Assembly (NCBI RefSeq): GCF_002075285.3
Contig: NZ_CP021983.2
Span: 1,530,001-1,562,000 of the forward strand
Source: Halomicronema hongdechloris C2206
Lineage (GTDB): Bacteria > Cyanobacteriota > Cyanobacteriia > Phormidesmidales > Phormidesmidaceae
Length of the DNA: 32,000 nt
Direction of reading: 5' to 3'
A model generated the notes under the pieces. The model was not told where the DNA came from. It was given only the letters and a program-made list of their open reading frames with translations, and searched no databases. The position numbers and the translations under genes are program-made. Shown here piece by piece: positions 1 to 29,199 of this stretch (within the stretch, counting starts at the first letter, position 1; every line of letters begins with the position of its first letter).

Positions 1-367
1 CAAACAGACCTACCTTATACTCAGCTCCGAGATCATAAAATGCCTGAAACTCCTGATAATCGTATCCTAGAGATTCGCCTTTATGGTTTCTATCTTGAGT
101 AATTTGGTAATTCTCTGGATGGTACTTTGCGGTATCCCAATAGCCTGTTTTGCTGGGATAGCAACCTGTTGAGAAGATCACCCAGTTTCGCTCAGAGCAA
201 ATTGTATCCGTTGCAGTCCCACATAAATCTACTTGAGTTTTGAGGCGTCCATAAGCGCCGCGATTACGTAACCCGCTCAAATTTGGTAGATGTCCTTGGG
301 ATATTAAACGCTCAAGCAACACTGGGTCTGCTGCATCTAAACCAATAGCAATTACTTTTTTCTTCAT
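1..367 (-). CDS. Alkaline-phosphatase superfamily protein (type I phosphodiesterase / nucleotide pyrophosphatase-like), N-terminal part; the 3' end runs off the window
   Basis: Hand translation of the minus strand from the ATG at 367-365 gives MKKKVIAIGLDAADPVLLERLISQGHLPNLSGLRNRGAYGRLKTQVDL... and stays open to position 1. The IGLDAADP...LPNL opening is typical of this family. It is missing from the ORF track because there is no stop in the window. The DNA is low G+C. Confidence 0.55.
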   Translation of the reverse strand, partial: MKKKVIAIGLDAADPVLLERLISQGHLPNLSGLRNRGAYGRLKTQVDLCGTATDTICSERNWVIFSTGCYPSKTGYWDTAKYHPENYQITQDRNHKGESLGYDYQEFQAFYDLGAEYKVGLF

Positions 368-616
368 AATATTCTCCTTATCAATTTCATTAACTCAAGA
401 AGCATTAAGCTGCCATTGGGAGTTTATGCCTATAAACATAAATAGTTGAAGTTCTTGGCAACCAAAACGCTCTGTAGAAGTCTGGCAAATAAGTTGATAG
501 ATAATCGCACTGTATTTATTCATCCTGGAGTTATCGCTTACTTACGAATTTAAATCACTTTCAAATCACTGCTCTCAATTAAAGTCTAATAATTCCGCAG
601 TCTTCATGATCTACCT

Positions 617-2425
617 TCAGCTTACATCTCTAAAGCAATTAGCCCAAAATAAATTCTCTAATGGCAGGGGCTTCTTAAGTTGATATCCCTGAACATAAGG
701 TATACCTAGTCTTTTGGCAACATCTAACATCAATTTCTTCTCAATTCCTTTGGCAATTATGGTGATTTTGGATGAATTGGCATGCTCAATAATATTCCTA
801 AATTCTTGCAATCTAACTAGGCTTTTCATATGCAATTCCAATGACAAAAAACTGAGTTTAAAGTGGTAAATGCTAGTTTCTGGTAGCTGTCGGAGAAGCC
901 CAGGATCACGAAAATCATCTAGAATAATGTTACAACCTATCTCTTCGATTTCGTGGGTCAAGCGAGCGACCGCATCTGGATAAGTTTTCGCCGCATGTTC
1001 AGGGATCTCAATCCAAAAATTCTCTGCAGGAAATTGATGTCGATTCAATAAATCAGAAAGAAAGACAGAGAAATACTGATCGCGTATGCTGGCCTGTGAC
1101 AGATTGATAGAGTAGTTTGCCTGACAGTTTTTTTGAGGTGATGATCTTTTGATTGAGTTGAATAGCGTTCGGATTACCCAGCGGTCAATTGTTTTGGTTA
1201 GTTCATAGTACTCAGCAATTGGCATGAAATCTTTTGGTAACAGAAGTCTCGTTGTAGGGGAATCGGAATTAAGTGTACAGGATAAGAGCCTGACTAATAC
1301 TTCATAGTTGAGTGGATCGTTTAGGCAATTATCAGTCGAGAAAATCGGTTGCTGGTATAAGCAGAAAAGATTATTCTCAAATCCCGACTCAATCTGATCA
1401 ATGACTGTCTTGCATTTATCCTTGCTAAGGCCACTCAAGGTAGTCTTACCGTAGTCTTTCAATCCCTTCCGAGCAATGAAAATTGGGCTAGATAATGTGC
1501 TAAAAAGGTATTCTCTTTCGCAGGCAAACAACAAATTTTTGTAAGGCTCTCGTTTTTCTCTAATTATATGCAACAATAACTTGCGTAAGTCATTAACTAT
1601 ATATAAAGGTAGCAATAAAGGTCGCTTCCAAGCGCTTGTACTTAATATGCGAATATAAAAGCGGCTTAGCCCAACACAACGTATTAAGGTAACTAAATAC
1701 TCTTTCTGAAGCCGTCCTTTAGGAATTTGATGGTAAACGACCATGGCTGGGTTATACCAAACTTCCCAGCCCGCTTTTCGGATATATAAGATGGCTTCTA
1801 AGTCTTCGCTGGCAAGGCCAGCAGCCTTACCTTTATTATTCAAGAATAATCGCCTAGGAACGCTTTGGAGCCACGCGTCTCGACGAACAACGAGTCCTGC
1901 TCCTGGTGGCAGAACCTTCGTATGTTGGTCGTAACGATGAGGATTTGGTCCTCGTTCGACAATGGCTAAGAAACAGGCAATATGTTTAAATTCCTCGGGT
2001 GGTGCTTGTTCAAAATCCCCGTGAATTTGACTGCCAAATGCGCCTGCTTCTGGATGTTGCTGGGCGAAGTTCCAAGCCTTAGCTACCCAATCGTCTTCTG
2101 GAAGGTTGTCATCATCTAGAAAGGCGATTAGCTTACCCCGAGCACTTTCTACCGCTCGCTGACGGGCAAAGGCGGCTCCTTGTTCCGCAACAAAGCAGTA
2201 CTGCAATTCAGCAGCCCCGGTCCAGGTGCGTTGATATTGCTGAGTTACTTGAGCTGTCTCATCCAGGCTATTGTTGTCACAGACAATAATTTCCCAAGTA
2301 ATGTGATCAACATGTTGCTGCGATCGCAACCGGTCCAACAGGCAAGGCAATCGCTGAGCACCATTATAGGTAGGGATGGCGACCGAGATATCTAACTGCT
2401 GTGTTGGTATACCAGAAATCACCAA
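617..2425 (-). CDS. Family-2 glycosyltransferase (HpsE-like, hormogonium-polysaccharide type) fused to a C-terminal EAL (c-di-GMP phosphodiesterase-fold) domain
   Basis: 602-aa ORF. N-terminal GT2 motifs are present: VAIPTYNGAQRLP, VCDNNSLDET, FLDDDN (DxD) and GAFGSQIHGDFE. The C-terminal ~260 aa carry the EAL-fold motifs in order: YEVLVRLL, SINLS, EIPE, ILDDF, FKLS, AKGIE, VQGYQLKKP. Confidence 0.8.
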   Translation of the reverse strand: MVISGIPTQQLDISVAIPTYNGAQRLPCLLDRLRSQQHVDHITWEIIVCDNNSLDETAQVTQQYQRTWTGAAELQYCFVAEQGAAFARQRAVESARGKLIAFLDDDNLPEDDWVAKAWNFAQQHPEAGAFGSQIHGDFEQAPPEEFKHIACFLAIVERGPNPHRYDQHTKVLPPGAGLVVRRDAWLQSVPRRLFLNNKGKAAGLASEDLEAILYIRKAGWEVWYNPAMVVYHQIPKGRLQKEYLVTLIRCVGLSRFYIRILSTSAWKRPLLLPLYIVNDLRKLLLHIIREKREPYKNLLFACEREYLFSTLSSPIFIARKGLKDYGKTTLSGLSKDKCKTVIDQIESGFENNLFCLYQQPIFSTDNCLNDPLNYEVLVRLLSCTLNSDSPTTRLLLPKDFMPIAEYYELTKTIDRWVIRTLFNSIKRSSPQKNCQANYSINLSQASIRDQYFSVFLSDLLNRHQFPAENFWIEIPEHAAKTYPDAVARLTHEIEEIGCNIILDDFRDPGLLRQLPETSIYHFKLSFLSLELHMKSLVRLQEFRNIIEHANSSKITIIAKGIEKKLMLDVAKRLGIPYVQGYQLKKPLPLENLFWANCFRDVS

Positions 2426-3303
2426 TGTCTTAAACTCCTTGAGCTTGGTAGAGACCCCTTGAGGTGATCACCAGTTCACCGGGGAGCTATGATATGGTGG
2501 CCACTCAGTCTTAGTTTAGCTCTCCCTGAGGCTGCATAATTTCATTGATCCATTCCCAGTGGCTCAACTCGGCATTTTAGCTTTGGATGCTGTCCATCTT
2601 TAAGGAAAAGGTAAATGTCTGTGGAGGCTATCCAATCTAGGAACATTTTAACTAGCCTTCCTCCTGGCGTCCTACTAATAAAGATGCGGGAATTATGACA
2701 GATCGATCGTATAAGCTAAGTCAGTTTAACCAGCACAGCCCTCACCTTACGGAAATACCTGTTTGCCGATTCAGTGAGTAATCTAGTCTAATTTGTTACA
2801 GGGCAAGTAGCGTGGTAACGGTGCGTTGACTTTACTATAGCTTTTTCGTATTTTCGGGTAAGTCGCATAAGCTTTATAAAAGCTTCAAACAAAGTTATCC
2901 TCTTCTCCACAAGCCCTATGGCCATCTACCAACTTTGGTAACTTCGCCAGTGCTGCATTATGGTAATGACGGCCGATAACTAAGAGCAGTATGAGCAAGT
3001 CAAGGGGCTGACTCTAGACTCAATCCAGCATGTGACTATTTGGCCCATCCTAACTTTATCCTCCCTGGCCAGCATGATCAGCACCACCTAAGATCTCTAC
3101 TTGGAATATTCTTGCTCTGGTATGATAATAGGTTTGAGGCAGTCCAAGGGAGTACAGCCGACTGGTGTTTGGCTGGCACGTAGATGTGCCTGTAAGCATC
3201 TCTAGATTTCAAGTTCGCTGAATTTTGGCTATAGGAGACCACCACTGACTAGAGTGTATCTTCTAGGCTATAGAGGTGAGATACGGGAGTGAGACAGTAG
3301 CCC

Positions 3304-3975
3304 ATGCCGCTGATGATTCTGGTGGCTGAAGATGATGAAGGCACTCGGCTGTCTATCAATGATTACCTTGAAATGCAAGGGTATTCAGTCGTTACGGCCA
3401 GCCACGGAGCCGAAGCCCTAGAGTGCATTCAAACCTATCAGCCCCATTTGTTGATTACCGATATTGCCATGCCCTACATGGATGGGTATGAGTTGGTACG
3501 CCAGGTGCGTCAGCAACCGATGCTGCGGCTCTTGCCAGTGGTTTTCTTGACGGCTCACAACGATACCGGGGATCGGATCCGAGGCTATCAGATGGGATGT
3601 GATCTCTATTTACCTAAGCCTTTTGAGTTGGAAGAGTTGGCCGCCATCGTCCGCAATCTGCTGGAACGGACGCAGATGATTCAGGCGGCTTGGCTGCAGC
3701 AATCTTCTCTAGAGATGCGGTCTGACGATGCCTCATTAACCCCCAATCAACGTCCTAAAGCCATGCCCGATACTATACAGCTGGATCTAACGGCTCGAGA
3801 ACGGGAGGTGCTGTCATTGCTATCCGACGGATTATCCAATGCCCAAATTGGGGACCAGCTTTACCTGAGTTCTCGCACCATAGAAAAATACGTCAGCAAC
3901 CTACTGCGCAAAACAGAGACAAATAATCGGGCAGAATTGGTACGGTTCGCCATCGATCATCACTTGGTGTCTTAG
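3304..3975 (+). CDS. Two-component response regulator, REC + LuxR/NarL-type HTH (Rre1/Ycf29-like)
   Basis: 223 aa. The receiver has ILVAEDDE, the phospho-acceptor context LLITDIAMPYMDG, and KPF. The C-terminus has the LuxR HTH (LTAREREVLSLLSDGLSNAQIGDQLYLSSRTIEKYVSNLLRK). Confidence 0.9.
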   Translation: MPLMILVAEDDEGTRLSINDYLEMQGYSVVTASHGAEALECIQTYQPHLLITDIAMPYMDGYELVRQVRQQPMLRLLPVVFLTAHNDTGDRIRGYQMGCDLYLPKPFELEELAAIVRNLLERTQMIQAAWLQQSSLEMRSDDASLTPNQRPKAMPDTIQLDLTAREREVLSLLSDGLSNAQIGDQLYLSSRTIEKYVSNLLRKTETNNRAELVRFAIDHHLVS

Positions 3976-6421: not shown

Positions 6422-9400
6422 TCATCGGTGGCGGCGATGGAGCAACCAGTAGGTGGTCATTTCACCGCGCCCTTTAATCGTAACGGTTCCCCGTTTCTGG
6501 AAGTGATACTGATCGTTAAGTCGTCGGTAGACCTGTTTGGTCACTTGAATGTGGTTAGCTTGCCCTTGGGATTCCATGCGACTGGCGACATTGACGGCAT
6601 CACCCCAGAGGTCGTAGGAGAACTTACGTTTGCCAATGACCCCAGCCACGACTGGCCCAGTAGCGATGCCAATGCGTAGCCCGAAGGAAGCCCCATCCTG
6701 ACGTTTGAACTGGGTAATAGCTTGCTGCATATCCAGGGCCATATCGGCGATGGCTTCGGTGTGGTTGGCCATCGGGTTGGGGACGCCTCCCACTACCATG
6801 TAGGCATCGCCGATGGTCTTGATTTTCTCTAGGCCGTGGGTTTCGGCGAGTTGATCGAAGATGGAAAAGATTTGGTTGAGGAGGTTGACGAGGTCGGTCG
6901 GTGCGATCGCAACAGACAGCCCCGTAAAGTCGACGATGTCGGCAAATAGGATGGTAGCTTCGTCAAAGCGATAGGCCACTGACTGGTGCTGCTGCTTCAG
7001 TTCTTCAGCAATGGATTCTGGCAAAATATTCAGCAACAGTCGTTCCGACTTCTCTCGCTCGATCTGCAGGGCCTCTTCTATTTGCTTACGCTCGGTGATA
7101 TCAGTGACAAACCCCTCAATAAACTCGGGAGTGCCATCAGCTGCATAGGTGCAGACGCCCTTTTCCAGTACCCATTTTTGCTCTCCTGCGGCCGTGATCA
7201 TGCGATAGATCGTCTCGAAAGGCTGGCGTTCCTGGATCGCCCGTTGTAGTTTTTCGCCCACGTAGGCATGATCCTCAGGATGGACTAGCCGACCAAAGGC
7301 TCCATTCACCTGCATCAATTCATCCGGTTGATATCCAGTTAGCTCGTAACACCCTTCACTGACAAAGGCCACCTGCCGCTCGTGATCGCACATGCGGCGA
7401 TAGGCCATGCCCGCTAAATTGCCCATCAGGGTAGCAAGATCCCGTTGGCTAGCTCGCAGGGCCTCTTCTGCCTGCTTGCGCTGGGTGATATCGGCCACAG
7501 TGCCCTCGTAGTAGAGGATCTGACCACTGCTGTTCTTGACTGTGCGGACATTCTCAGAGACCCAGATGATGGTGCCATCGGCCCGGTAGATCTGCGATTC
7601 AAACTTGGCCACAGAGCCTCGAGCATGTAACTGGTGTTCTAGGGCATGCCGATGCTCTGCATCGACATAGAGCCGCCGAATATCGCTTACCTGGCCAATC
7701 AATTCAGCCGGAGAGAGATACCCCAACATGCGAGCCAGGGCAGGGTTAGCACTGAGGCAACGACCTTGGTCATCCACCTGGAAAATTCCCTCGGCCACAT
7801 TCTCGAAAATGCTGCGATATTTCTCTTCCGCTCGCTGCAGGGCTAAGTCGGCTCGACGCCGTTCGGTGATATCGCGAGCCACCCAAATGACCCGATTGTT
7901 GGGCATGGGGGAGACAATGGCGGTGTACCAAGCAGTGGTCTCAAAATCTTCTGGAGCGGCGATGCCATCGGGATGGGTATCGTCTCGCCATTCCCCAATG
8001 GGTAAGCTGTAATCGAGGCGCACGGGTTGGCGAGTATTGAGGGCCTGCTGGATGTGGCGCATGAACAGCTGCGCTTGATAGGGCGGCAGGACATCGTAGA
8101 TGTTTTTGCCTTCCCGCTCGGTCTCGGGGTTATAGACCAAAGCCGAATTAGTGGCCACGATATTGAGGTACTGCCCCTCGGCATCGAACACCGTGATCAC
8201 ATCGGTCATAGCCGCAAACAGGGCCTTCAATTCCGCGGTAGAGGCCTGCAGCTCTTCTTCGGCCCGCTGGCGTTCACGAATCTCGGTCATCAGGCGCTCG
8301 TTGGCGGCACTCAGGGCTTCTGTGCGGGCTGTGACCCGTTGTTCCAGCTCTTCGTTGGCACGCTGGAGGGCGGCTTCCACCTCTTTGCGGTCGCTAATGT
8401 CTTCGACCGTGCCCTCGTAGTACAGCAGGGTGCCATCGTCAGTATGAACAGAGCGGGCATTTTCAGAAATCCAGATGATATTGCCATCCCGCTGGTAGAC
8501 CTGAGACTCAAAATTCTTGACCGAACCATGCTGCTGCAGAGTCCGGGTGAACTCTTCCCGGCGTTTCGGGTTGACATAGAGTTGCTGTTGGATGCTGGTG
8601 ATATTCGCCATCATGTCCGCTGGCGAATCATAGCCGTAGATTCTAGCCAGGGCAGGATTGGCACTGACATAGTGCCCATCTGAGGTGGTTTGAAAGATGC
8701 CCTCGACGGTATTTTCGAAGATGTTGCGGTACTTGGCTTCGGCTTCCCGTAGGGCCTCCTCCGCTTGTTTGCGCTCACTGATGTCAATGCCCACGGTAAA
8801 GGCCGCCTTGCCTTCGTTATATTTCTGGGCCACGATCAGGAACTGGCGGCGATTACCGCCCACGTAGGCAGAGACTTCTTTGAAGGCATCCTGCTGATCA
8901 CTCTGGAAGAAATCCGCTACAAATTGGTTAAACTCGGTGCTGGTATGGAGGAACCCAATGTCTTGATTGGTAAAGGCCTCAGCTGGCATCTTGAAGGTCT
9001 GGGCCAGATGCCGATTGACTCCCAGATACCGTAGGTCAGAACTAATCCACGACACGATGCCAGGCACGGCATCTAGGATGGCCTGCAGTTGATCCTTGGC
9101 ATCCCTGAGGGCATTTTCTGCTTGGGTTTGTTTGACCACCTCAGCCACGAGAGTGTCGTTGGAGACTTTGAGATGGGCGGTCTGCTCTTGGTATTTCTTC
9201 TCTAGGGCGGCTTTATCTCGGGTGAGTTGCTCCAGGGTCTGGGTGCGATCGCACAATGTCTGGCGCAACTCTGCCACTTCAGCTTGCAGGGCCTCCACTT
9301 GAGCTTGCAGGGCTACCCTCTGCGACGACTCGTCTGGGGGTGGCTCCAACGGCGATGCTGCTGGGGCAGCAGGATCTGGCGATGGGGACGGTTGCTGGGC

Positions 9401-9511
9401 GTTCGAGGCAGCTGACGGCGGAGAAAAGCGCTGGGTCATAGCTGATATCACAGGATCCGACAGAGTATCTATGGCATTGGCTAGATGCTTCAGGGGCAAT
9501 GAACTTGTCAA
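6422..9511 (-). CDS. Multi-PAS sensor adenylate cyclase (class III cyclase homology domain)
   Basis: 1029-aa ORF. The N-terminus is P/A/S-rich low complexity followed by a coiled coil. Repeated PAS/PAC modules follow (YRNIFENTVEGIFQ..., YRSIFENVAEGIFQ...). The C-terminal cyclase has ILFADIVDFTG, KIKTIGDAYMVVGG and FSYDLWGDAVNVASRMES, and the Lys/Asp specificity pair indicates ATP. The track start is a TTG at 9511; the first ATG is at 9439. Confidence 0.9.
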   Translation of the reverse strand: MTSSLPLKHLANAIDTLSDPVISAMTQRFSPPSAASNAQQPSPSPDPAAPAASPLEPPPDESSQRVALQAQVEALQAEVAELRQTLCDRTQTLEQLTRDKAALEKKYQEQTAHLKVSNDTLVAEVVKQTQAENALRDAKDQLQAILDAVPGIVSWISSDLRYLGVNRHLAQTFKMPAEAFTNQDIGFLHTSTEFNQFVADFFQSDQQDAFKEVSAYVGGNRRQFLIVAQKYNEGKAAFTVGIDISERKQAEEALREAEAKYRNIFENTVEGIFQTTSDGHYVSANPALARIYGYDSPADMMANITSIQQQLYVNPKRREEFTRTLQQHGSVKNFESQVYQRDGNIIWISENARSVHTDDGTLLYYEGTVEDISDRKEVEAALQRANEELEQRVTARTEALSAANERLMTEIRERQRAEEELQASTAELKALFAAMTDVITVFDAEGQYLNIVATNSALVYNPETEREGKNIYDVLPPYQAQLFMRHIQQALNTRQPVRLDYSLPIGEWRDDTHPDGIAAPEDFETTAWYTAIVSPMPNNRVIWVARDITERRRADLALQRAEEKYRSIFENVAEGIFQVDDQGRCLSANPALARMLGYLSPAELIGQVSDIRRLYVDAEHRHALEHQLHARGSVAKFESQIYRADGTIIWVSENVRTVKNSSGQILYYEGTVADITQRKQAEEALRASQRDLATLMGNLAGMAYRRMCDHERQVAFVSEGCYELTGYQPDELMQVNGAFGRLVHPEDHAYVGEKLQRAIQERQPFETIYRMITAAGEQKWVLEKGVCTYAADGTPEFIEGFVTDITERKQIEEALQIEREKSERLLLNILPESIAEELKQQHQSVAYRFDEATILFADIVDFTGLSVAIAPTDLVNLLNQIFSIFDQLAETHGLEKIKTIGDAYMVVGGVPNPMANHTEAIADMALDMQQAITQFKRQDGASFGLRIGIATGPVVAGVIGKRKFSYDLWGDAVNVASRMESQGQANHIQVTKQVYRRLNDQYHFQKRGTVTIKGRGEMTTYWLLHRRHR

Positions 9512-11611: not shown

Positions 11612-13609
11612 TTGATCCGACTATTGAACCAGATACGGGAGCTCATTGTTCGTTGGTGGGGAGATTTCACCCTCCAGACCCGCCTGATGGCAGGGGCAAC
11701 CCTGATGGTTTCCTTACTCATGAGTGCCCTCACCTTTTGGGCCGTCAATACGATTCAACAAGATGCCCGTCTCAACGACACTCGCTTTGGCCGAGATTTA
11801 GGCTTGCTGCTGGCGGCCAATGTTGCGCCTCTGGTGCAGAAGGAAGATCGCACCGAGTTGGCCCGATTTTCCTATAGCTTCTATCAGAGTACCTCTAGTG
11901 TTCGCTACATGCTCTATGCCGATGAGGACGGCAACATTTTCTTCGGCATTCCCTTTTCTGAGGCTACGGTACAGAACTCCTTAACGCTGCGACGGCGCAT
12001 GCAGTTGCCGGAAGACTATGCCAAAAATGCCGATCGCCCCATGGTGCGTCAGCACCTAACTCCGGCAGGTGAGGTGACTGATGTCTTCGTGCCCCTCAAC
12101 TATAATGGTGACTATTTAGGGGTCTTAGCGTTGGGGATCAACCCCAATCCGACGGTGGTGGCCTCCTCTCATCTGACTCGTGATGTCACAATCGCGGTGT
12201 TTGTCTCGATTTGGGTCATGGTGATCTTGGGGGCTGTGTTTAATGCCTTGACCATTACTCAGCCAATTAAGGAACTCTTGGTTGGGGTAAAAAACATTGC
12301 TGCTGGCAACTTTAAGCAGCGCATTGATCTGCCGCTGGGGGGTGAGTTAGGCGAACTGATTCACAGCTTCAACGATATGGCAGAGCGGCTGGAGCGTTAT
12401 GAAGAGCAAAATATCGAAGAGCTAACGGCAGAGAAGGCGAAGCTGGAAACGCTGGTGTCTACCATCGTCGATGGCGCCATCTTGTTAGATGCCGATATGA
12501 ATATTGTGCTGGTAAACCCGGCGGCTCGCCGTATGTTTGGCTGGGATGGCCACAATCTCACCGCAGGCAATGCCCTGGAGCACTTTCCCAATCAGGTGCG
12601 GGTGCAGTTGACTCGGCCCCTATTCCAGGCAGTGGCGGGGGAGTCTGAAGGCATGGAATTTCGGATCGCCCTGACTGAACCAGCCAATCGCATGGTGCGG
12701 ATTCTGCTGAATACGGTGCTGGATCAGGCTAAGGAGAATGTGAAGGGGATCGCCATCACGGTGCAGGATATTACCCGGGAGGTGGCCCTGAATGAAGCCA
12801 AGGCGCAGTTTATCAGCAATGTCTCCCACGAGTTGCGCACGCCTCTATTTAACATCAAGTCGTTCATTGAGACGCTGCATGAGTACGGCACAGATCTCAC
12901 CGCAACCGAACAGCAAGAATTTTTAGAGACGGCCAACCACGAGACCGATCGCCTGACTCGCTTGGTCAATGACGTCTTGGATTTGTCGCGATTAGAGTCG
13001 AACCGGCGCTATCAGTTTGAGGCCGTTGACATTCATCAGCCCATTGAGCAAACCCTGCGCACCCACCAACTCAATGCTAAGGACAAGCAGATCGAACTCG
13101 TCCAGAAGGTCGCAGCTGACCTGCCACCGGTGTTTGGCAATTATGATCTGCTGCTGCAGGTCTTCAGTAATCTGGTGGGCAATGCCTTGAAGTTTACGGA
13201 GGCTGGGGGCCGGGTGGCTATTCGCGCCTATCCAACTCCCTTGAAGCGCCAGCACCCTGATGAACCGGCCTGTGTCAGGGTGGAGGTGTCAGATACGGGC
13301 ATTGGGATTGCCCCGGAGGATCAAGAGGCGATTTTCGATCGGTTCTTTCGGGTGGAGAATCGAGTCCATACCCTGGAAGGAACTGGCTTGGGGCTATCTA
13401 TCGTCAAAAATATCATCGAAAAACACAATAGCCGGGTCCATCTCATCAGCGAAGTGGGAACGGGGACCACGTTTTGGTTTGATCTAGCGGTGTATGAGAC
13501 TGAGGATGCCGATAACGCTGCAGACCTTGATAATTGCGATCGCACCCCCTCATGCCAAGATTCAGCGGTGGCCGATCCGGTGGTGATGGGCCTGGCCCCA
13601 GACCTTTGA
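11612..13609 (+). CDS. hik33: Sensor histidine kinase, Hik33/NblS/DspA (Ycf26) type: 2 TM, HAMP, PAS, HisKA, HATPase
   Basis: 665 aa with a TTG start in the track. The N-terminus LQTRLMAGATLMVSLLMSALTFWAVNTIQQDARLNDTRFGRDLGLLLAANV and ITQPIKELLVGVKNIAAGNF (HAMP) match my memory of NblS/Hik33. H-box FISNVSHELRTPL; the G-boxes are present. Confidence 0.78.
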   Translation: MIRLLNQIRELIVRWWGDFTLQTRLMAGATLMVSLLMSALTFWAVNTIQQDARLNDTRFGRDLGLLLAANVAPLVQKEDRTELARFSYSFYQSTSSVRYMLYADEDGNIFFGIPFSEATVQNSLTLRRRMQLPEDYAKNADRPMVRQHLTPAGEVTDVFVPLNYNGDYLGVLALGINPNPTVVASSHLTRDVTIAVFVSIWVMVILGAVFNALTITQPIKELLVGVKNIAAGNFKQRIDLPLGGELGELIHSFNDMAERLERYEEQNIEELTAEKAKLETLVSTIVDGAILLDADMNIVLVNPAARRMFGWDGHNLTAGNALEHFPNQVRVQLTRPLFQAVAGESEGMEFRIALTEPANRMVRILLNTVLDQAKENVKGIAITVQDITREVALNEAKAQFISNVSHELRTPLFNIKSFIETLHEYGTDLTATEQQEFLETANHETDRLTRLVNDVLDLSRLESNRRYQFEAVDIHQPIEQTLRTHQLNAKDKQIELVQKVAADLPPVFGNYDLLLQVFSNLVGNALKFTEAGGRVAIRAYPTPLKRQHPDEPACVRVEVSDTGIGIAPEDQEAIFDRFFRVENRVHTLEGTGLGLSIVKNIIEKHNSRVHLISEVGTGTTFWFDLAVYETEDADNAADLDNCDRTPSCQDSAVADPVVMGLAPDL

Positions 13610-14191: not shown

Positions 14192-15172
14192 ATGTGCCGA
14201 CAGGTGTCCCGCATTTTGATCATCGATGACGACAAAGTTGCTCGAGCTGTGCTGCGGCAACGCCTTGAACAGGAAGCTTACGATGTTGTCGAGGCTGACA
14301 GCGGCAGCACTGGCTTAGAGTTGTTTCAGATGCTCTGCCCCGATCTGGTATTAGTGGATGCCGTGATGCCGACCATGGATGGCTTTGAGTGTTGCCGCCG
14401 CCTACAAACCTTACCGGGGGGGCAGCATATCCCGGTGCTGATGATTACTAGCCTAGAGGATGAAACCTCGGTGAAACGGGCCTTTGCGGCAGGAGCAGCT
14501 GATTTTGTCACCAAGCCAGTGCAGTGGGCAATTTTGCTACAGCGGGTACGGCGCATGATCTGGCAGGCCCATCTCTACCAGCAGCTAGAGGCGGCGAATC
14601 AGGCCTTGCTGAAACTGGCGAATCTGGATGGACTGACTCAAATTGCCAATCGCCGTCATTTCGATCAGCATCTAGAGCAGGAGTGGCGGCGACTGATGCG
14701 ATGGTCAAAGACCGGCCCTCAAGGGCCATCGCATCGATCTCTGTCTCTCATCCTCTGCGACATCGACTATTTCAAAGCCTACAATGACCACTACGGCCAT
14801 CAAGCCGGCGACGAGTGCCTGCAACGGGTCGCCCATATTCTGCAACGGACGATTCAGCGACCAGCCGATTTGGCCAGCCGCTATGGCGGCGAAGAGTTCG
14901 CCATCACCTTACCAGAAACCCCACTATCAGGGGCATTACAGATAGCTCACTGCATCCGGGCGGCCATCCACGCCGAACGGTTACCCCATCACTACTCCAG
15001 CGTTGCTGACCATATCACCCTCAGCTTCGGCATCGCCAGTCTGATTCCCCAGGCCAACCAGGGCCCAGAGGATCTCATCGCCAGCGCCGACCAGCGACTC
15101 TATCGGGCCAAGCAACAGGGACGCGATCGCATCTGCGCCGACCTCACCGTGATCTCGGAAGCAGGCCATTGA
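14192..15172 (+). CDS. Response regulator with GGDEF output (diguanylate cyclase, PleD/WspR-like)
   Basis: 326 aa. Receiver motifs ILIIDDD, LVLVDAVMPTMDG and TKP. The GGDEF domain has DGLTQIANRRHFD and the active-site motif GGEEF. Confidence 0.9.
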   Translation: MCRQVSRILIIDDDKVARAVLRQRLEQEAYDVVEADSGSTGLELFQMLCPDLVLVDAVMPTMDGFECCRRLQTLPGGQHIPVLMITSLEDETSVKRAFAAGAADFVTKPVQWAILLQRVRRMIWQAHLYQQLEAANQALLKLANLDGLTQIANRRHFDQHLEQEWRRLMRWSKTGPQGPSHRSLSLILCDIDYFKAYNDHYGHQAGDECLQRVAHILQRTIQRPADLASRYGGEEFAITLPETPLSGALQIAHCIRAAIHAERLPHHYSSVADHITLSFGIASLIPQANQGPEDLIASADQRLYRAKQQGRDRICADLTVISEAGH

Positions 15173-16295: not shown

Positions 16296-18827
16296 CTACT
16301 CCCGGGGTTCCAGCAGTACCCCTTGGCTGTCCTGCAGGGTAAACGACCGCAGATCTTCAATCGCCACCCCAGGTGAGGCGATCGACACCTGCCACTCATC
16401 CATATCCAGCTGCAGCCAGTCGCCTAGGGTCACCGGTAGAGGATCTCCCCCCATGTGAGCCACCATCACGACCTGACGCGTGGAGGCCGAGTCAGCCTCT
16501 GATTCTGCCGGTGCCCGCCGCCAGCCGTAGAAAACTGTGCAATTTTGATCGCTAATGTGGTTAAACCGATCGGTGCCTGAGAGATTCTGGCGTAGCCAGG
16601 GATTGGCGTGCCGAAAGCGTCGCAGGGCTAAGTTGTAGGCTAGTTTGTCCTGATCCAGCACACTTTCCTGCAGCCAGACGTTACACATGGCGTGGGCGTC
16701 TTCCATGAAGGCTTTGGCAAAGGCCTTCAGAGCTGTAACATTGAGCTCCGTCAACACCTGGGATTTCCCAGGGCGATTGAGTTTTTGCAGTTGGGCTCCA
16801 GAACGACGCTGTTGAGCCGCTTGCTGAACTTCAGGGGTATCTGAGCTGCTTCCTAGAAACTGCTGGCAGAGATTGGCGACTTCCTCCAGGTCGTAGTCAG
16901 TTTCGTCGATGGCTTCCCAGAGCCCTCGCACAAACTGCCGCAATTCATCCAACTGGGCAAACCCCATGGCTTTAAGTTGAGGAAACAGCTGCGGCCAATT
17001 GTAGGTCTCTGGGATAATTTGCCAATCTAAAAATCCCCCTGCCTCTTCAGCCATCACCTTGACCCCGTAACGATCGTCCGTGTTGCGCAAAAAGCCCCAG
17101 GGAGCCTTCATGGTGCAGTTGATGAAATCCATCGGTAACCCCGGGCTAAAACCATAGGTGAAGAGAGTAATAGCAGGATTATCGTAGGCGTTATTGAGCA
17201 CCTCAGGCAGGCTATCGCCTAGATTCCAATTGATGGGTAGTTCCGGATCAACCTGAGTGCCTCGTCGCAGAGTGTCATGGTTGCCGCATCCGGTAATCCA
17301 ATTGGCCCCTAGCTGAGCCTGTTCAACCACCCGCGGCCATTTCTTGTCCCAGAAGCCGCGCAGGCTGGGAGTATTGTGAGCAAAGATCAACGGTCCCCAC
17401 TGGAACGCCTGCGGTTGAAATTCAATGATGTCGCGGTAGGTGGATATCTCTTCCCAGCCTTCTGCAGGCCAAGGACGACCATCTTCAAAAATGGCAAATA
17501 ACCGCCGTTGGGCAGCACCGATCTGCTGGGTCACCCGGGCCATCTCCTGCAGATAGGAGTCGTCGTATTCCACCCTTCCCGAGATGGGGTTGAAGAACTT
17601 GAAGTCCTGAGCCCCGTCTACCCGAATACCATCGGCTCCAGTGTTGATCTTGCGCCGTTGCATCTCCAGGAGAATCGCTCGCACAGTTGGGTTCTGATGG
17701 TTAACATCCTGGCCATACATATTAGGGCCTTTGAGAAAACGGCCATTCAGCAGAGCCAGAGCCTGGTTATCGGCATGACCGTAGACAATGTCGTAAATCA
17801 GCTGAATTGGTCCCGTGGGGAAGTTGTGCAGGGTTTCTACAAAGGTGACTAGCTCATCGGGCCGTAGTGTTCTCAACACGGAGGGATCAATTGCACTACT
17901 GCCGAAGATGACAATGTCGTAGCCCCAGTTTTGGGTGTCAGGTTTCTTCAGGGTAATCAGGATATCTCCTGGTTCCCGCTCGATCTCCTCGGTGTCGGGA
18001 TCCATTTCATCCAAATCATTTTCGTCGAAGATGAAAAAGCCCTCCCCCAGATCATGCTTGCCTCGATACTCGACAGTGGGTTCGATGGGCATGACTTGCA
18101 GGGCATCATAGCCAATAAAGGCTTGCTCAGCCGCAGTAAGTGGGGCTTGCTGGGAGATTTTCTGACTCAGACGCTGATAGACCTCGGTGAGGCCAGCTAG
18201 GGTGCCATCGGGGGAACTGGTATTGACATGGAGCTGCAGGATGTTGGTGGGGGGATGGACGCGAACGATGCCGTCTTCCTGGTCTCCTTGGTGGAAATAG
18301 CCTAAATCTTGGCGCTGGGCTTGGAGGCTGGCCATGTCATAGACTTCTGCGGGCGCGTAGATACCGTAGGGCAGTGAGTAAGCCAAGCAGTCGCCGACGA
18401 CGCGCACTTCGTTGCTGTTCATATCCAGATAGCGCAACCAGTAAAAGGAGCCCAGTTGCTCTCTATTGCCCGCCTTCAGACCGGATAATACGCCCCAGAA
18501 ATACTCTCCTTGCTTGACCAGACTGACATAGTCCTGCCGGAAGCGAACTTTTTGCAGCGGTTTGGTGGGGTCGATAGAGCGCTTGGGAGTGAATACCTCT
18601 AGGTAGATATTCTTGGGCTGGATCATGTCGGCGGCAAGTTCAGGCACCCACAGCCCAATCTCGGTTAAACCATCTTTAGCTCGGTAGTGGGCGCCCAGGC
18701 GCGTGGCAAGCTGTTGAGCTTTACCGAAGACGGTGTCGTCGGAAGACTCGACGGCTTCGGCCCAATCCAGCAAGGCTTGTGTCTCGTCTTCGATGAGCTG
18801 GATACGGGGTTGAGCAGTAGTCACCAT
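16296..18827 (-). CDS. Large alpha-amylase-superfamily (GH13-like) glycoside hydrolase; possibly glucosylglycerol-hydrolase (GghA)-like
   Basis: 843 aa. GH13-like catalytic regions are GADGIRVDGAQDF (region II nucleophile Asp), AIFEDGRPW (region III Glu) and CGNHDTLRR (region IV). The specific substrate cannot be read from the sequence. Confidence 0.6.
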   Translation of the reverse strand: MVTTAQPRIQLIEDETQALLDWAEAVESSDDTVFGKAQQLATRLGAHYRAKDGLTEIGLWVPELAADMIQPKNIYLEVFTPKRSIDPTKPLQKVRFRQDYVSLVKQGEYFWGVLSGLKAGNREQLGSFYWLRYLDMNSNEVRVVGDCLAYSLPYGIYAPAEVYDMASLQAQRQDLGYFHQGDQEDGIVRVHPPTNILQLHVNTSSPDGTLAGLTEVYQRLSQKISQQAPLTAAEQAFIGYDALQVMPIEPTVEYRGKHDLGEGFFIFDENDLDEMDPDTEEIEREPGDILITLKKPDTQNWGYDIVIFGSSAIDPSVLRTLRPDELVTFVETLHNFPTGPIQLIYDIVYGHADNQALALLNGRFLKGPNMYGQDVNHQNPTVRAILLEMQRRKINTGADGIRVDGAQDFKFFNPISGRVEYDDSYLQEMARVTQQIGAAQRRLFAIFEDGRPWPAEGWEEISTYRDIIEFQPQAFQWGPLIFAHNTPSLRGFWDKKWPRVVEQAQLGANWITGCGNHDTLRRGTQVDPELPINWNLGDSLPEVLNNAYDNPAITLFTYGFSPGLPMDFINCTMKAPWGFLRNTDDRYGVKVMAEEAGGFLDWQIIPETYNWPQLFPQLKAMGFAQLDELRQFVRGLWEAIDETDYDLEEVANLCQQFLGSSSDTPEVQQAAQQRRSGAQLQKLNRPGKSQVLTELNVTALKAFAKAFMEDAHAMCNVWLQESVLDQDKLAYNLALRRFRHANPWLRQNLSGTDRFNHISDQNCTVFYGWRRAPAESEADSASTRQVVMVAHMGGDPLPVTLGDWLQLDMDEWQVSIASPGVAIEDLRSFTLQDSQGVLLEPRE

Positions 18828-23913: not shown

Positions 23914-25353
23914 GTGAAATTGAAGGAGTTCTTTGATTGGCGACGCCAAGGCGATCAACTACCCGGTCCGCCGGCTAGCCTTTTGTCTGGAAACTTGAGA
24001 GAGGTTCAGGAATACGGAGGCTTCTTCAGCTTCCTTCCAGCAATGCATCAACGGTATGGAAAGGTGCTTCGGTTCTGGATGGGATCGTCAGATCTGATGG
24101 TGTCCATTAGCGACCAGGATATTCTTTCTCAAATTGCTTCTACTTTACACTCAAGACCGAAAGCCGCCAAGAAAGCCTTGGGGTGGTTAGGGCATGAGAG
24201 TCCAACATTCAAGAGCCATGAGGAATTGAGGACCATTCGCTCAAAGGTGATGCCCTTGCTGATGGGTGAGTCCTTAAAGTATCTGTGCCTAGTTGGTCAA
24301 GAGCGCACGAAACGAATGCTGGACGGCTGGAAAACTGCGACTGACGCAGTCGAAGTGGCAAGCGACTTCAGTGAGATAACTTTTGATATCATTGGGGTCG
24401 CTTTATTTGGACAAGAGTTCAGTAGCACTGACCTAGGCCAAAAGTTCAAAAAATTGTTTGTGCATGTCCTCCGTGAGGCTCACCCAAGGTCTGAGGAAGT
24501 CATTCCTTCTTTCTGGGATCCAAAATATTGGCAATGGAGAAAGAGCATTTCCCGCTTGCAAGACTGCGCTGAACAACTGATCAAGCAGAGGAGACAAGCT
24601 CTAAATATGAATAAAAGGAAGGATTTATTGTCTCTGGTTCTAAGTGAGAAAGATGGAAGTGGGAATCCATTTTTCTCTGATGAACAAGCCCGTGCCACAA
24701 TTGTAACCTTTGTCTTTGCTGGGTTTGACACCTCTGCATCATCTTTAGCATGGATTTGCTATCTGCTCTCCCAACACCCTGAGGTTCAGGCTAGGGCACA
24801 GGATGAGGTTGATAAGGTACTGGCTGGTCGGTTGCCAGAGTTTGAGGATCTCGACAAACTTAACTATCTGACATGCGTGGTCAAAGAAGCAATGCGCTTG
24901 TACCCACCTGTTCCTGAGGCACTGCGAGCGCTGGAGTCAGATTTGGAAGTTGGTGGCTATTCCATTCCCAAAGGAGCAACCTTTGTTATTCCCATCTCTA
25001 TGCTCCATGAGGATGAACAGATTTGGGAGGAACCCAGAAAGTTTTTGCCAGAGCGTTTCACCCAAGAAAATGGAAAAGACCACCCTCGATATGCTTACCT
25101 TCCGTTCGGAACAGGTTCGAAGAGTTGTATGGGGGCAAGATTTGCCATGACAGAGATTCGACTGGTGCTAGCAATGATGCTGCAAAGGTTCTCATTACAG
25201 TTGGTTCCCGAGCAGGAAGTTATTCCGGAAATGCAATCCATTATTTTGCAACCGAAGTATGGGCTCAGGTTGAACGTTGTGACCAGAAACATGAATGGAA
25301 CCAGAGGACAGACTTTGGAATATTCTGCGTCTGCCGGAGTTGCCAACGCATGA
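23914..25353 (+). CDS. Cytochrome P450 (E-class, CYP3/4/110-like)
   Basis: 479 aa with a GTG start. Proline hinge LPGPP, I-helix AGFDTSA, K-helix EAMRLYPP, PERF, and the heme loop FGTGSKSCMGARFA. The last ~20 codons look like read-through into the next, decayed gene. Confidence 0.88.
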   Translation: MKLKEFFDWRRQGDQLPGPPASLLSGNLREVQEYGGFFSFLPAMHQRYGKVLRFWMGSSDLMVSISDQDILSQIASTLHSRPKAAKKALGWLGHESPTFKSHEELRTIRSKVMPLLMGESLKYLCLVGQERTKRMLDGWKTATDAVEVASDFSEITFDIIGVALFGQEFSSTDLGQKFKKLFVHVLREAHPRSEEVIPSFWDPKYWQWRKSISRLQDCAEQLIKQRRQALNMNKRKDLLSLVLSEKDGSGNPFFSDEQARATIVTFVFAGFDTSASSLAWICYLLSQHPEVQARAQDEVDKVLAGRLPEFEDLDKLNYLTCVVKEAMRLYPPVPEALRALESDLEVGGYSIPKGATFVIPISMLHEDEQIWEEPRKFLPERFTQENGKDHPRYAYLPFGTGSKSCMGARFAMTEIRLVLAMMLQRFSLQLVPEQEVIPEMQSIILQPKYGLRLNVVTRNMNGTRGQTLEYSASAGVANA

Positions 25354-25800
25354 AGGCGCGGAGGACTACCTTCTAACTGTAAAAAGTCTGGCATTGAATC
25401 GTGATGGTCAATGGTTTGCGGGGATTGGGCACAAAAAGAGGCGATCATGTTGCCTTGTTTTCGCCAAACGTTCTAGAATTCGTCATCTCCTATCTTGGCA
25501 TTTTGAAGCTCGGTGATGTTGCAGTTTCACTATACGTCAGGTATCACAGGTTTCCCCAAAGAGGCTACTTTTTCCCATGGCAATGTAATTTCTAACACCC
25601 ACTCATAGAACTGCTGTTGTGTAATGCGGCCTGATGAGCAGTTACTAGTTTACCTGCCCCTATTCCATTGCTTTGGTCAAAACGCAATTCTCAACAGTGG
25701 TTTCAATGCCTGTGCCACTATTATTCTGCAACGCCGATTAAACCAGAGCAAGTCCTGGAAACTATTACCGCTGAGCAGGCTGCTACCGTTGCTGCGAACT
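25291..25800 (+). pseudogene. Decayed AMP-dependent synthetase/ligase (acyl-CoA ligase) gene
   Basis: Family blocks are scattered over three frames: NGLRGLGTKRGDHVALFSPNVLEFVISYLGILKLGDVAVSL (frame of 25401), and then directly YTSGITGFPKEATFSHGNVISN (AMP motif, shifted frame). About 100 codons that normally separate these two blocks are missing. An in-frame TAG follows at 25606-25608, then LVYLPLFHCFGQN, then another shift to KPEQVLETITAEQ. Similarity is lost at ~25800. Confidence 0.8.
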
Positions 25801-26121
25801 TCCCACTGCCCAGACTTGAGAATAGGCAAAATCAATCGCCTCTTTTAATGCTTCATAAGTTCGCGCTCCAACTGAGCCCAAGATGCTCTTTACCTTCGAC
25901 CAAAATGGTTCTATCGGTGAGAAGTCTGGGGAATAGGGTGGTAAAAATCTGATCTCGGCACCTACCGCCTCAAGCGTAACTGTGACCTCTTCTGTGGCTT
26001 TATGGGTAGAGCTATTATCCACAATAAGTACGGCTCCAGGCCATAGCTTAGGTGCTACTCGACGAATGATGTACGCTTCAAATGTCGGCTCTCTTGGATC
26101 TATGGTGACGGACTTGTTTTC
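25783..26121 (-). mobile_element. IS630/Tc1-mariner family transposase, C-terminal fragment only
   Basis: The minus strand reads ...TFEAYIIRRVAPKLWPGAVLIVDNSSTHKATEE...RFLPPYSPDFSPIEPFWSKVK (the DDE third-Asp/Glu region). There is no N-terminal half, and it abuts the ISL3 stop codon at 26122. Confidence 0.8.
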
Positions 26122-26505
26122 TCAGGAGAAACAGGCTAATAGCCTAATTCGCAGATTTTCAAAGTTTGTAAACCCATAAGCCTGCCGCTTGATCAACTTT
26201 ATTTTGTTGTTTATCCCTTCCATAACTCCACTGGTTGTACGGTCGATAAAGTAATGACATATTCCATCAAGATGGTTTTTAATCGTTTTGATACAACTGC
26301 AATACAGATTTTCTCCTTCTTTCATCCACTTTTCTAGTTGAATTCGGGCTTCTTCTGGCGCTTGGTAAGATTGATAAATATCTCTGAAACTCTCTTTAAG
26401 CTCATAAGCCTTTCTCAATCGCTGAGAGCACCTCAGAACCTCCTCTACTTGCTCTTCTTGTTCTGCATCTAACTCAGACCTACTCTTGAGTATTAAGTAT
26501 TTTGG
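26122..26505 (-). mobile_element. ISL3 family transposase, C-terminal fragment
   Basis: KYLILKSRSELDAEQ...LRKAYELKESFRDIY...DRTTSGVMEGINNKIKLIKRQAYGFTNFENLRIRLL is the canonical ISL3 C-terminus. Confidence 0.8.
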
Positions 26506-27168
26506 TGGTGCTACACAGGTAATGATGCATTGCAGTGATGAATGAAGTTCCACAACAATCCGATATGATTGCGTAGACTTTTTGAGAAGGCCAAACTCCG
26601 TCGCACAAACCGTGAGACTCGCTGACGCAGGGTGCAGTTGAATCGCTCGATATAGCTGGTTTTGCCACTCGCTTTAGTCACTACCCGATGCCGCTTCTGG
26701 GGCAGCATGCTCTGGTAGGCTTCCCACTCATCGGTGCAGAGCACGGCGCACTGACGATAGACCGGCGGCAGTGATCGCCACAGGCGCTGGGCGCGCTCTC
26801 GATCCCGCCTGCCCACGTGCGCCTCAATGATTTCTCGGGTATCGGCATCAAGGGCAAGCCAACCCCATTGTTTGTTGCCTTTATGGTCAACGAAGGACCA
26901 AAGTTCGTCGCACTGCACGGTTAATTGCCTTTTTTTTGGGCTGTACCTCGGCCCGGGTCGCGGTTTGTGCCGATTTGTCCTTGACGGAATCCTGCAGCCA
27001 TTGTTCGGAAACCTGCATCGCTCGCGCGATGCCAGCCATCGAGATGCGTTCCAGCAGAAGTCTGTCAATCAGCTCTCGGGTCGGCTGGTCAATGCGTTTA
27101 TCCGTTGGATTCTCCATGAACTGGTAACCGCATTGGCGGCAGAGAAAGCGTTGTTTTCCGGTATGAAT
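26506..27168 (-). mobile_element. IS1 family element, 5'-truncated (InsA-like and InsB-like frames)
   Basis: The InsA-like part is IHTGKQRFLCRQCGYQF...LLLERISMAGIARAMQVSEQWL. The InsB-like part is CDELWSFVDHKGNKQWGWLALDADTREI...YIERFNCTLRQRVSRFVRRSLAFSKSLRNHIGLLWNFIHHCNASL. The two frames overlap at an A8 run. The first CxxC of InsA and the left end are absent. Confidence 0.8.
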
Positions 27169-27471
27169 ACGCTCTGTTGAATGGCGGTCGAAATCGATAA
27201 AATCTATCGCTTCTGTAAAGTACTTCTGACAGTTTTCACACTTAAACTGGCGACGCTCGATTGTCAGTACTGTAAATTTTCCCAAGATTGACAAATCGCG
27301 AACTTGCAGTGGACGATGCTGATTAACTTTATCTGTTTCACAGCCACAAAACTGGCAAGGTACAGACTGATTGAGCCATCTCAGACCCAAATGCACTTCA
27401 TTGTCAGTCTCCGTACACCTCTCTATGGTTACATTTGGAAAATTGAGCAATCGTTCTAAATGAAAGTCCAT
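27169..27471 (-). mobile_element. ISL3 family transposase, N-terminal zinc-finger fragment (same gene as 26122-26505, split by the IS1 piece with the middle ~200 codons lost)
   Basis: MDFHLERLLNFPNVTIERCTE...CQFCGCETDKVNQHRPLQVRDLSILGKFTVLTIERRQFKCENCQKYFTE is the typical ISL3 N-terminus. Confidence 0.8.
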
Positions 27472-27598
27472 TTCTCTTGTGATTGTGTTTGTGCCTCAGT
27501 ATACATGAGACACCGTCTATCCAGGAGAGCCTAAATTTTTCACTTGTCTGGCATTCTTTTGAGGATGCCTAGAAGGAGAAAACTTGAGCTGAATCTCA

Positions 27599-28477: not shown

Positions 28478-28737
28478 ATCTCTTTCCTCTCATAATCTAT
28501 TTCATTTCTAAGGGAGTTGTAGACAGATGACTCAGCTGATGAGGTAAGTGACCGAAAACCTGGCAATGCAAGTGATCGCGCAACCTCAAGATTTTCTTCG
28601 CAAGCAGACTCTAAATTTCAACAGATAAGATGTTACTCCGTAAGGACCCACATGGAAGCGGTATGGATTTGTTGCCATTTAGTGATGAGCTCCCCTGTTA
28701 AGGGCGAGAAATTGAGCGATCGCCCCTTGGGCTAGAA

Positions 28738-29199
28738 TTAAGATGTAGAATTGGAGTAATCATTGATAATTTCCCAAACCACCTCAATTCCTGTAACAAA
28801 TTGCCATCCAAACAGCACAGTGATAGTAAGGGCGATTGCAATATGTGTGTAGCGTGCCCATTCTTTGCCTCGTTGCATCAGAGGTGCTAATGCCGCTGCA
28901 TTTGCCATTAGCACTGTCATTCCTAAGCCAACGAGGGTATGGGGAACCACATACAACTTGCCACTGTTAAGGTATTCGATACCCAGGACACCGATACTGC
29001 CAGTTGTCATTAATGCCAAGAGTAAAGCTCCGAGTTGGTAGTGTCTTTGTCCGAATTTCTGTTTGACCAACGCTTTTTTCAGCTCGCCAGTTGCAGTCCG
29101 GGTACGCCGAACTTGAATCCCCAAATAGAGGGCATAGAGTGTGAAAACAAACACGACCCACATCCAAGCGGGATGGATTGCATAGAGCCAGTAGTTCAT
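28738..29199 (-). CDS. DUF4079-family integral membrane protein
   Basis: 153 aa with four hydrophobic helices. The N-terminus HPAWMWVVFVFTLYALYLGIQVRRTR and the later HYQLGALLL / PHTLVGL histidines resemble the cyanobacterial/plant DUF4079 family. Confidence 0.65.
   Translation of the reverse strand: MNYWLYAIHPAWMWVVFVFTLYALYLGIQVRRTRTATGELKKALVKQKFGQRHYQLGALLLALMTTGSIGVLGIEYLNSGKLYVVPHTLVGLGMTVLMANAAALAPLMQRGKEWARYTHIAIALTITVLFGWQFVTGIEVVWEIINDYSNSTS

Follow-up and report, generated by a model that had tools for sequence, protein, structure and literature searches.

The window analyzed here, by which we mean the whole stretch of 32,000 nucleotides (nt) at positions 1,530,001 to 1,562,000 of the Halomicronema hongdechloris C2206 contig NZ_CP021983.2, carries near its left end a gene that we call hpsE-EAL. 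This is a single open reading frame (ORF) of 602 amino acids (aa) on the minus strand (617 to 2425), recognized in the ORF list, by Pfam and NCBIfam and in the homologue search. Its product is 100% identical to P0001, a 601-aa H. hongdechloris C2206 protein recovered in that search and annotated as “EAL domain-containing protein/glycosyl transferase.” Translation of the annotated 601-aa version probably begins at the GTG at 2422, and a Shine-Dalgarno sequence (AAGGAG) lies at 2440-2435. From the letters alone, an initial annotation of this DNA had described the ORF as a family 2 glycosyltransferase (GT2) of the HpsE type fused to an EAL domain, and profile searches bear this out. Glycos_transf_2 (PF00535) is matched at aa 14-148 (8.6e-23), Glyco_tranf_2_3 (PF13641) at aa 13-236 and EAL (PF00563) at aa 344-586 (7e-31; 107.8 bits, far above the cut-off of 31.3), while the NCBIfam equivalog model EPS_HpsE (NF038302) scores 450 bits against a cut-off of 300, with aa 11-316 spanning model positions 1-306 of 307. 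Every motif quoted in that annotation is present in the product, namely AIPTYNG (16-22), DNNSLDET (50-57), DDDN (104-107), and GSQIHGDFE (131-139) in the glycosyltransferase (GT) part, and EVL (375-377), SINLS (439-443), EIPE (473-476), DDFRDPGLL (503-511), FKLS (522-525), KGIE (559-562), and QG (579-580) in the EAL part. The Pfam scan found no domain beyond GT2 and EAL, be it a GGDEF, REC, PAS, or HAMP tandem, and no PilZ match, and the processive-GT2 model PF13632 reached 17.9 bits (cut-off 27); the NCBIfam LapD model, at 39 bits, fell far short of its cut-off of 1020. Hydrophobicity windows of 19 residues gave no predicted transmembrane segment (maximum KD19 of 1.4).

The AlphaFold model, built on 118 sequences, predicts a single compact protein of two domains (pLDDT 91, pTM 0.91). 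Its GT-A fold catalytic domain (aa 10-238; 1712 to 2398, minus strand), which is also delimited by PF00535/PF13641 and has a mean family identity of 67%, contains a DDD (DXD) motif (aa 104-106; 2108 to 2116, minus strand) that is invariant in 119/119 homologues. Three long basic helices (aa 240-329; 1439 to 1708, minus strand), modeled at aa 240-260, 264-291, and 297-329, link this domain to the EAL domain and, judging by the coverage of the HpsE model, still lie inside the HpsE homology region. The EAL domain itself (aa 334-590; 656 to 1426, minus strand) is modeled as a TIM barrel, and its assignment rests on the Pfam match, on PDB sequence matches to RbdA/PA0861 (1e-23) and FimX (7e-14), and on Foldseek. 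When the model was compared with the PDB by Foldseek, only the EAL half was matched (RbdA, MorA, FimX, RocR; TM ~0.8 on the target), with entries 4fou and 7lkq among the fold matches, and no solved structure spanning both the GT2 and the EAL halves was found in that search.

In the EAL pocket, catalytic positions were mapped by aligning the protein with RbdA/PA0861, an active enzyme, and with FimX, and are paired here with what we take to be the corresponding RocR residue numbers. On this mapping the window protein keeps Q359 (no RocR number), E375 (E175), R379 (R179), N441 (N233), E473 (E265), E476 (E268), D503 and D504 (D295, D296), K523 (K316), E562 (E355), and Q579 (Q372), so that the first-metal and substrate ligands expected of an active phosphodiesterase (E, R, N, E, D, K, Q) are all in place. 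The general-base glutamate is not. The first Glu of EGVE, which serves the second metal and corresponds to RocR E352, is replaced by K559 (codon at 749 to 751, minus strand); in RbdA the aligned residue is the Glu of its “EFVE” stretch. Loop 6 is likewise degenerate, with D503 conserved but the stretch as a whole reading DDFRDPGLL (aa 503-511; 893 to 919, minus strand), that is, DFRDPGLL in place of DFG(T/A)GYSS. The initial annotation had already noticed that EGVE reads KGIE and that loop 6 has diverged amid otherwise retained catalytic and binding positions, and residue-by-residue scoring agrees. By the usual classification of EAL domains, hpsE-EAL presumably falls in the inactive class, and its features are those of a degenerate-EAL receptor, with an EAL fold that lacks catalytic residues and retains those that contact the nucleotide.

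These substitutions are not peculiar to the window protein. We compared a family set of 119 homologues with a control set made up of the 150 generic EAL domains that ranked highest in an exhaustive search. At position 559, 105/119 homologues have Lys and only two have Glu, making 117/119 in which the glutamate is replaced, whereas 135 of the 150 controls have Glu there. Position 504, retained in the window protein but variable across the family, is Asp in 70/119 against 139/150 in generic EAL domains, and position 476, similarly variable, is Glu in 49/119 and Ala in 42/119 against Glu in 143/150. Loop 6 shows no consensus across the homologues, where controls read DDFG[ST]G. By contrast, Q359, E375, R379, N441, E473, D503, K523, Q579, and G580 are invariant or nearly so, in a domain whose mean identity to the query is only ~31% against 67% in the GT part. 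It thus appears from these alignments that strong purifying selection acts on the nucleotide and first-metal pocket, and that the second-metal glutamate, the conserved partner aspartate, the anchor of loop 6, and loop 6 itself have been lost family-wide, as would be expected of a domain that binds its ligand without hydrolyzing it. Because this pattern recurs throughout the family, a cyclic di-GMP (c-di-GMP) sensor is favored over a phosphodiesterase, and the receptor reading put forward initially from one protein is strengthened.

The GT2-EAL architecture is not rare. A first homologue search returned 542 proteins at E<=1e-10, and among the best 120 of these, for which the architecture was read, 118 have both GT2 and EAL and align with 95-100% of the query at 45-60% identity (self-match aside). 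More than 115 full-length GT2+EAL protein clusters were found, and NCBI gives the name HpsE to many of the long forms, among them proteins from Leptolyngbya, Laspinema, Adonisia, Phormidium, Romeria, Leptothoe, and many metagenome-assembled genomes. In a genome scan that took one genome per species and the 80 best loci, the long form of ~600 aa occupies 29/80 loci and a short HpsE of ~320-370 aa without EAL the other 51/80. Long forms occur in Leptolyngbya, Phormidesmis, Laspinema, Phormidium, Okeania, Oscillatoria, Dapis, Sphaerothrix, Adonisia, and a Xenococcaceae genome; short forms in Nostocales, Coleofasciculaceae, Floridaenema, Symploca, Crinalium, and Oculatella. A neighbor-joining tree built from the GT region, with the tandem paralogue as its root, places all 32 long forms (the 29 loci, the window gene, and two relatives, A and B, introduced below) in one clade nested among the short forms. 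Over 6903 pairs of long proteins, GT and EAL identities are correlated (Pearson 0.81), and this co-variation indicates that the fusion is old and that both domains have been kept together. On this sequence evidence the GT2-EAL fusion looks like a single, old, maintained event. It is not peculiar to this genome. A search with a word index using the EAL part alone returned nothing, since this part is so diverged; an exhaustive search with the EAL part yielded one representative past 1e-30, and generic GGDEF-EAL proteins scored nearly as high as family members. As a separate observation, P0003 and P0010 (~655 aa) share 52% identity in the GT half only. Their C-terminal extension is of another kind and lacks EAL, which would make them a further HpsE-based architecture.

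In terms of novelty, then, the gene is annotated, the family is large and named, and both degenerate EAL receptors and c-di-GMP-controlled polysaccharide enzymes are established. HpsE-EAL is an uncharacterized variant whose architecture is already in public annotation and is neither unusual nor unrecognized, being widespread, monophyletic, and publicly named either HpsE or “EAL domain-containing protein.” The initial remark that no characterized GT2-EAL protein is known appears to hold, as we found neither such a protein nor a paper linking HpsE to an EAL domain in the searchable full-text literature.

The window copy of this old fusion is itself a mosaic, in which one lineage accounts for the leader and the first ~262 codons and another for the helices, the EAL domain, and the downstream gene. 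This emerges from comparison with relative A (protein P0004, locus L081) and relative B (protein P0002, locus L084). Amino-acid identity to A is 90.5% over aa 11-230, 45% over aa 231-330, and 29% in the EAL domain, while identity to B runs 74, 58, and 49% over the same segments; taken as a block, the first ~262 codons are 89% identical to A at the amino-acid level. The tract shared with A extends beyond the coding region to include ~230 nt of 5' leader as well as the first ~259 codons (1649 to 2659, minus strand; 80% nt identity), and the match of L081 to window 2659..1649 holds at 80% over 1032 nt, after which similarity ends. Identity to A at third codon positions is 0.64 before codon 262 and 0.28-0.33, which is saturation, after it. 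A maximum chi-square analysis of the three sequences places the most likely recombination breakpoint at aa 262-264 (approximately 1634 to 1642; chi-square 72, 0/1000 permutations), with informative sites supporting A over B by 53:10 before it and B over A by 82:16 after it. The downstream gene, which is cut by the window edge so that its 5' part lies inside (1 to 367, minus strand) and which belongs to the type I phosphodiesterase/nucleotide pyrophosphatase family (PF01663), sides with the second lineage, being 83% identical to its counterpart in B at the amino-acid level and 80% at the nucleotide level, but 50% at the amino-acid level to that in A. The initial annotation had proposed a recombination near this point, within the GT2 domain, and that an EAL extension had come with it. 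A junction close to the predicted switch and within the HpsE region is upheld; it does not interrupt the catalytic core, sitting instead at the C-terminal edge of the GT-A domain (~aa 238) where the helices begin, and it did not bring in the EAL extension, for relative A has its own, unrelated EAL tail with the same G+C step of 0.10. One EAL-bearing tail, with its cassette, has thus been swapped for another, and the fusion was not created by the exchange.

Similar discordance is seen elsewhere in the family. GT and EAL identities are 98 vs. 53 for P0108/P0112 and 87 vs. 30 for P0005/P0057, P0018/P0073 is a further discordant pair, and locus L002 has B-type downstream genes at 76-79% yet an EAL domain only ~30% identical to that of B. 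These sequence comparisons suggest recurrent module exchange at hpsE loci across cyanobacteria, and the hpsE locus appears modular, its parts being exchangeable around a conserved catalytic coding region that serves as the anchor. When closer relatives of the 5' tract were sought, a third homologue search gave only short HpsE proteins at 56-69% identity.

Base composition had been read initially as the signature of a native 5' half joined to a foreign, low-G+C 3' half. The four 60-nt counts on which this was based are exact (36 at 2161-2220, 37 at 1861-1920, 15 at 1561-1620, and 19 at 781-840), and a compositional step is real: total G+C is 0.494 before it and 0.382 after it, and maximum likelihood puts the change point near window position 1737. 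The step is, however, distributed very unequally over codon positions. Between the first 262 codons and the rest of the gene, G+C drops from 0.615 to 0.424 at first positions (p=4e-6), from 0.408 to 0.341 at second positions (p=0.11), and from 0.408 to 0.388 at third positions (GC3; p=0.67), and in both halves GC3 lies far below the pooled value of 0.61 for ten neighboring host genes (p=1e-10 and 1e-15). In its share of amino acids with AT-rich codons the 3' part ranks first among all 118 long proteins (FYMINK 0.314 vs. a mean of 0.214), while the AT-codon share of the 5' part is average for the family, and the first-position G+C of the 3' part (~0.42) is like that of genes from genomes of 34-38% G+C. 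Low G+C also runs past the stop codon into the next gene and, in the other direction, upstream through non-coding DNA to ~2900-3300. The compositional island therefore takes in the whole of hpsE-EAL, and its boundary lies in the 878-nt non-coding region between this gene and a divergent response-regulator gene (2426 to 3303), where G+C stays below that of the host until ~2900-3300, and not in the ORF. The step within the gene is AT-rich amino-acid usage in a weakly constrained 3' part, because the constrained catalytic domain cannot follow non-synonymous AT drift and the tail can. Two other accounts of the step were considered and rejected: it is no family-wide domain-composition effect (the N-minus-C difference in 31 other long genes averages 0.022 and exceeds 0.05 in only three), nor is it a mutational boundary at synonymous sites, GC3 showing no step.

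The alternative in which a native hpsE-like 5' half was recombined with a foreign low-G+C homologue that brought the EAL domain, the G+C step marking the junction, should still be given some weight. A real mosaic junction does lie within ~100 nt of the G+C change point, steps this large are as rare in the family as just described, and the 3' part is extreme both in AT-codon usage and in first-position G+C. Nevertheless, we consider it rather unlikely, as the 5' half is not native-like by GC3, as relative A combines the same 5' tract and the same 0.10 step with an unrelated EAL tail, and as a monophyletic and old fusion was not made by this recombination.

For the protein itself, we regard as reasonably likely a reading, drawn from sequence, in which HpsE-EAL is a GT2 enzyme with a c-di-GMP-binding, non-hydrolyzing EAL switch, encoded by a mosaic gene at the edge of a low-G+C island. 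The EAL domain would bind c-di-GMP, probably with one metal, without cleaving it. The signal would then pass through the helical linker and allosterically switch the GT, or control how it is recruited to the secretion machinery, and synthesis of the polysaccharide would thereby track the c-di-GMP level, with a sign that could go either way. The gene would sit at the edge of a low-G+C polysaccharide island whose modules are traded through homologous recombination anchored on the conserved GT-A coding region. The glycosyltransferase itself probably performs a step in building an oligosaccharide repeat unit and is probably not a processive synthase-translocase, since this GT-A protein is small, is soluble or peripheral, and is not predicted to form a transmembrane channel.

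Several established systems offer points of comparison. The GT2 region is homologous over the full NCBIfam model to HpsE of Nostoc punctiforme (Npun_F0070), which belongs to the hpsEFG hormogonium polysaccharide glycosyltransferases. This GT2 region is 50-58% identical to short Nostocales HpsE proteins, but HpsE of Nostocales and Coleofasciculaceae is ~320-370 aa long and has no EAL domain. Whether long or short, hpsE has a second, tandem GT2 paralogue behind it in most genomes, and often a PF01663-family gene after that; unlike these usual hps loci, the window has no tandem hpsF/hpsG-type GT2, and the phosphodiesterase-family gene comes directly next. As in the receptors FimX and LapD, an EAL fold has lost its catalytic Glu (FimX also lacks the first Glu of EGVE), the fold matches the FimX EAL domain at TM ~0.8, and the proposed role would be c-di-GMP sensing and not degradation. 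FimX has in addition lost the Asn, Glu, and Asp-Asp metal ligands, whereas the HpsE-EAL family keeps the first-metal site, its substitution is a conserved Lys, and its partner domain is a glycosyltransferase and not a GGDEF/PAS/REC/HAMP array. The physical coupling of a sensor to a polysaccharide GT recalls the PilZ domains of BcsA, cyanobacterial XcsA, and Alg44, the degenerate GGDEF domains of PelD and PssE, and PgaCD. Unlike BcsA-type synthases, hpsE-EAL has no PilZ or GGDEF domain and no predicted transmembrane channel, and is a small soluble or peripheral GT-A protein. Lastly, a low-G+C sugar island whose modules have different kinship on each side of a conserved anchor is reminiscent of Gram-negative O-antigen and capsule clusters, but here one junction interrupts a coding region where the catalytic domain ends, and a regulatory domain is exchanged together with downstream genes.

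A number of points weigh against the switch interpretation or parts of it. With the first-metal site and K523 intact, residual or lysine-assisted hydrolysis may persist. EAL domains also serve as ligand-independent interaction modules. The function of HpsE is assigned from homology, and H. hongdechloris itself may or may not glide. The second GT2 paralogue is absent from the window, as it is from L084 and L002, and the HpsE model also scores 445 bits on the paralogue next to relative A's gene (L081 2214-3167), so that “HpsE” is best read as a subfamily and not as a strict orthologue, HpsE and HpsF-like proteins not being separated by it. As for the mosaic, the recombinant could be either the window gene or that of relative A, the nearest-neighbor comparison favoring neither.

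Among the other functions that might be proposed for the EAL domain, one is that it binds no nucleotide and acts as a dimerization or docking module of the YdiV or CsrD type, for example as a tether to a pilus or secretion apparatus. Its fast evolution (~31% mean identity), its exchange between lineages, and the docking of PilZ/PilB partners by FimX-type EAL domains, with 4fou and 7lkq among the fold matches, would all suit such a module; we nonetheless find it doubtful, because eight pocket residues are nearly invariant amid 31% drift, which is unlike a pure scaffold. It is unlikelier still that the domain remains an active c-di-GMP phosphodiesterase forming a local sink beside the GT, with K559 standing in for the charge of the second metal/Glu or for its role as base. 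This reading draws on the near-invariance of the first-metal ligands E375, N441, E473, and D503 together with K523 and Q579, and on the fact that the closest solved sequence relative, RbdA, is an active enzyme, but it must contend with a general-base/second-metal Glu replaced in 117/119 homologues (Lys in 105) and with variability at D504 and E476 and an unconserved loop 6, all of them conserved in ordinary EAL domains. Mutants of RocR at E352 and in loop 6 reportedly lose activity by orders of magnitude. Finally, it is highly improbable that the mosaic is an artefact of unequal constraint on a conserved catalytic domain and a fast tail without recombination: GT and EAL identities do differ (67% vs. 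31%) throughout the family, but among pairs whose GT parts are 85-90% identical the EAL median is 70% and the window/A pair, at 29%, is the minimum of that bin, the nearest neighbor flips from A to B (53:10, then 16:82; chi-square 72), synonymous-site identity to A falls from 0.64 to saturation, and the ~230-nt non-coding leader is also common to A.

Returning to the sensor reading, a broader and more tentative proposal, to which we would give less than an even chance, is that HpsE-EAL may be the missing c-di-GMP effector for slime and gliding in non-heterocystous filamentous cyanobacteria, acting through a one-metal Lys switch and with its sensor exchanged alongside sugar genes. In Leptolyngbya boryana gliding is suppressed by high c-di-GMP and by a diguanylate cyclase (PMC10581220), which would fit inhibition of HpsE-EAL. 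The genetic evidence cited there for a role in hormogonium or slime polysaccharide and motility comes only from hpsEFG of N. punctiforme (PMC10581220). Cyanobacterial c-di-GMP effectors are described as little studied in a 2023 review, and HpsE-EAL would provide a directly testable candidate across Leptolyngbya-, Phormidium-, Oscillatoria-, and Okeania-like lineages. If the proposal is true, GT2-EAL would join PilZ, the GGDEF I-site, and PgaCD among the designs that couple c-di-GMP to polysaccharide. The mosaic shows that a sugar-gene cassette can take a regulatory domain along when it is exchanged, and on this proposal one recombination event would re-tune the type of polysaccharide and its regulation together.

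G+C is lower downstream than upstream of hpsE in several genomes, and low-G+C sugar islands stand beside genes of host composition in L001 (0.58/0.44) and L041 (0.53/0.41). Downstream of relative A's gene, L081 2214-7770 holds a GT2, a PF01663-family gene, another GT2, an unknown gene, and a GT10 fucosyltransferase-like gene, and looks like a low-G+C sugar island (0.33-0.42 against 0.50-0.54 in the adjoining genes) in a genome that seems H. hongdechloris-like in G+C. In the leader, window 2426-2659 and L081 138-387 share the near-identical blocks GGCT.GTT.AAATGTTCCT, CTGAGT.GCCACCAT, and AAGGGG.CTCTACCAAGCT.AAGGAG, and this ~230-nt sequence common to the window gene and A could be a conserved regulatory leader. 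An Rfam search of 1-3400 (E<=1) gave two matches, both at chance level, with no known RNA family in the 878-nt upstream region, and a promoter and terminator scan of the upstream region stayed at background level.

Beyond the non-coding region, several signaling genes lie within 13 kb. A REC-LuxR response regulator (3304-3975, plus strand) is divergent from hpsE-EAL, and is followed by a multi-PAS adenylate/guanylate cyclase (6422-9511, minus strand), a HAMP-PAS histidine kinase (11612-13609, plus strand), and, ~12 kb from hpsE-EAL, a REC-GGDEF diguanylate cyclase (14192-15172, plus strand). Further along, an 843-aa protein (16296-18827, minus strand) is matched end to end by Pfam GHL5 (“hypothetical glycoside hydrolase 5”) at 1307 bits, a family that is uncharacterized. 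A second low-G+C patch at 24000-30000 (0.41-0.48) contains a cytochrome P450, a LysR regulator (G+C 0.38, GC3 0.33), a DUF4079 protein, and a flavodoxin-like reductase, and is followed by IS66-family transposase ORFs at 30611-31402; this patch may be another acquired island.

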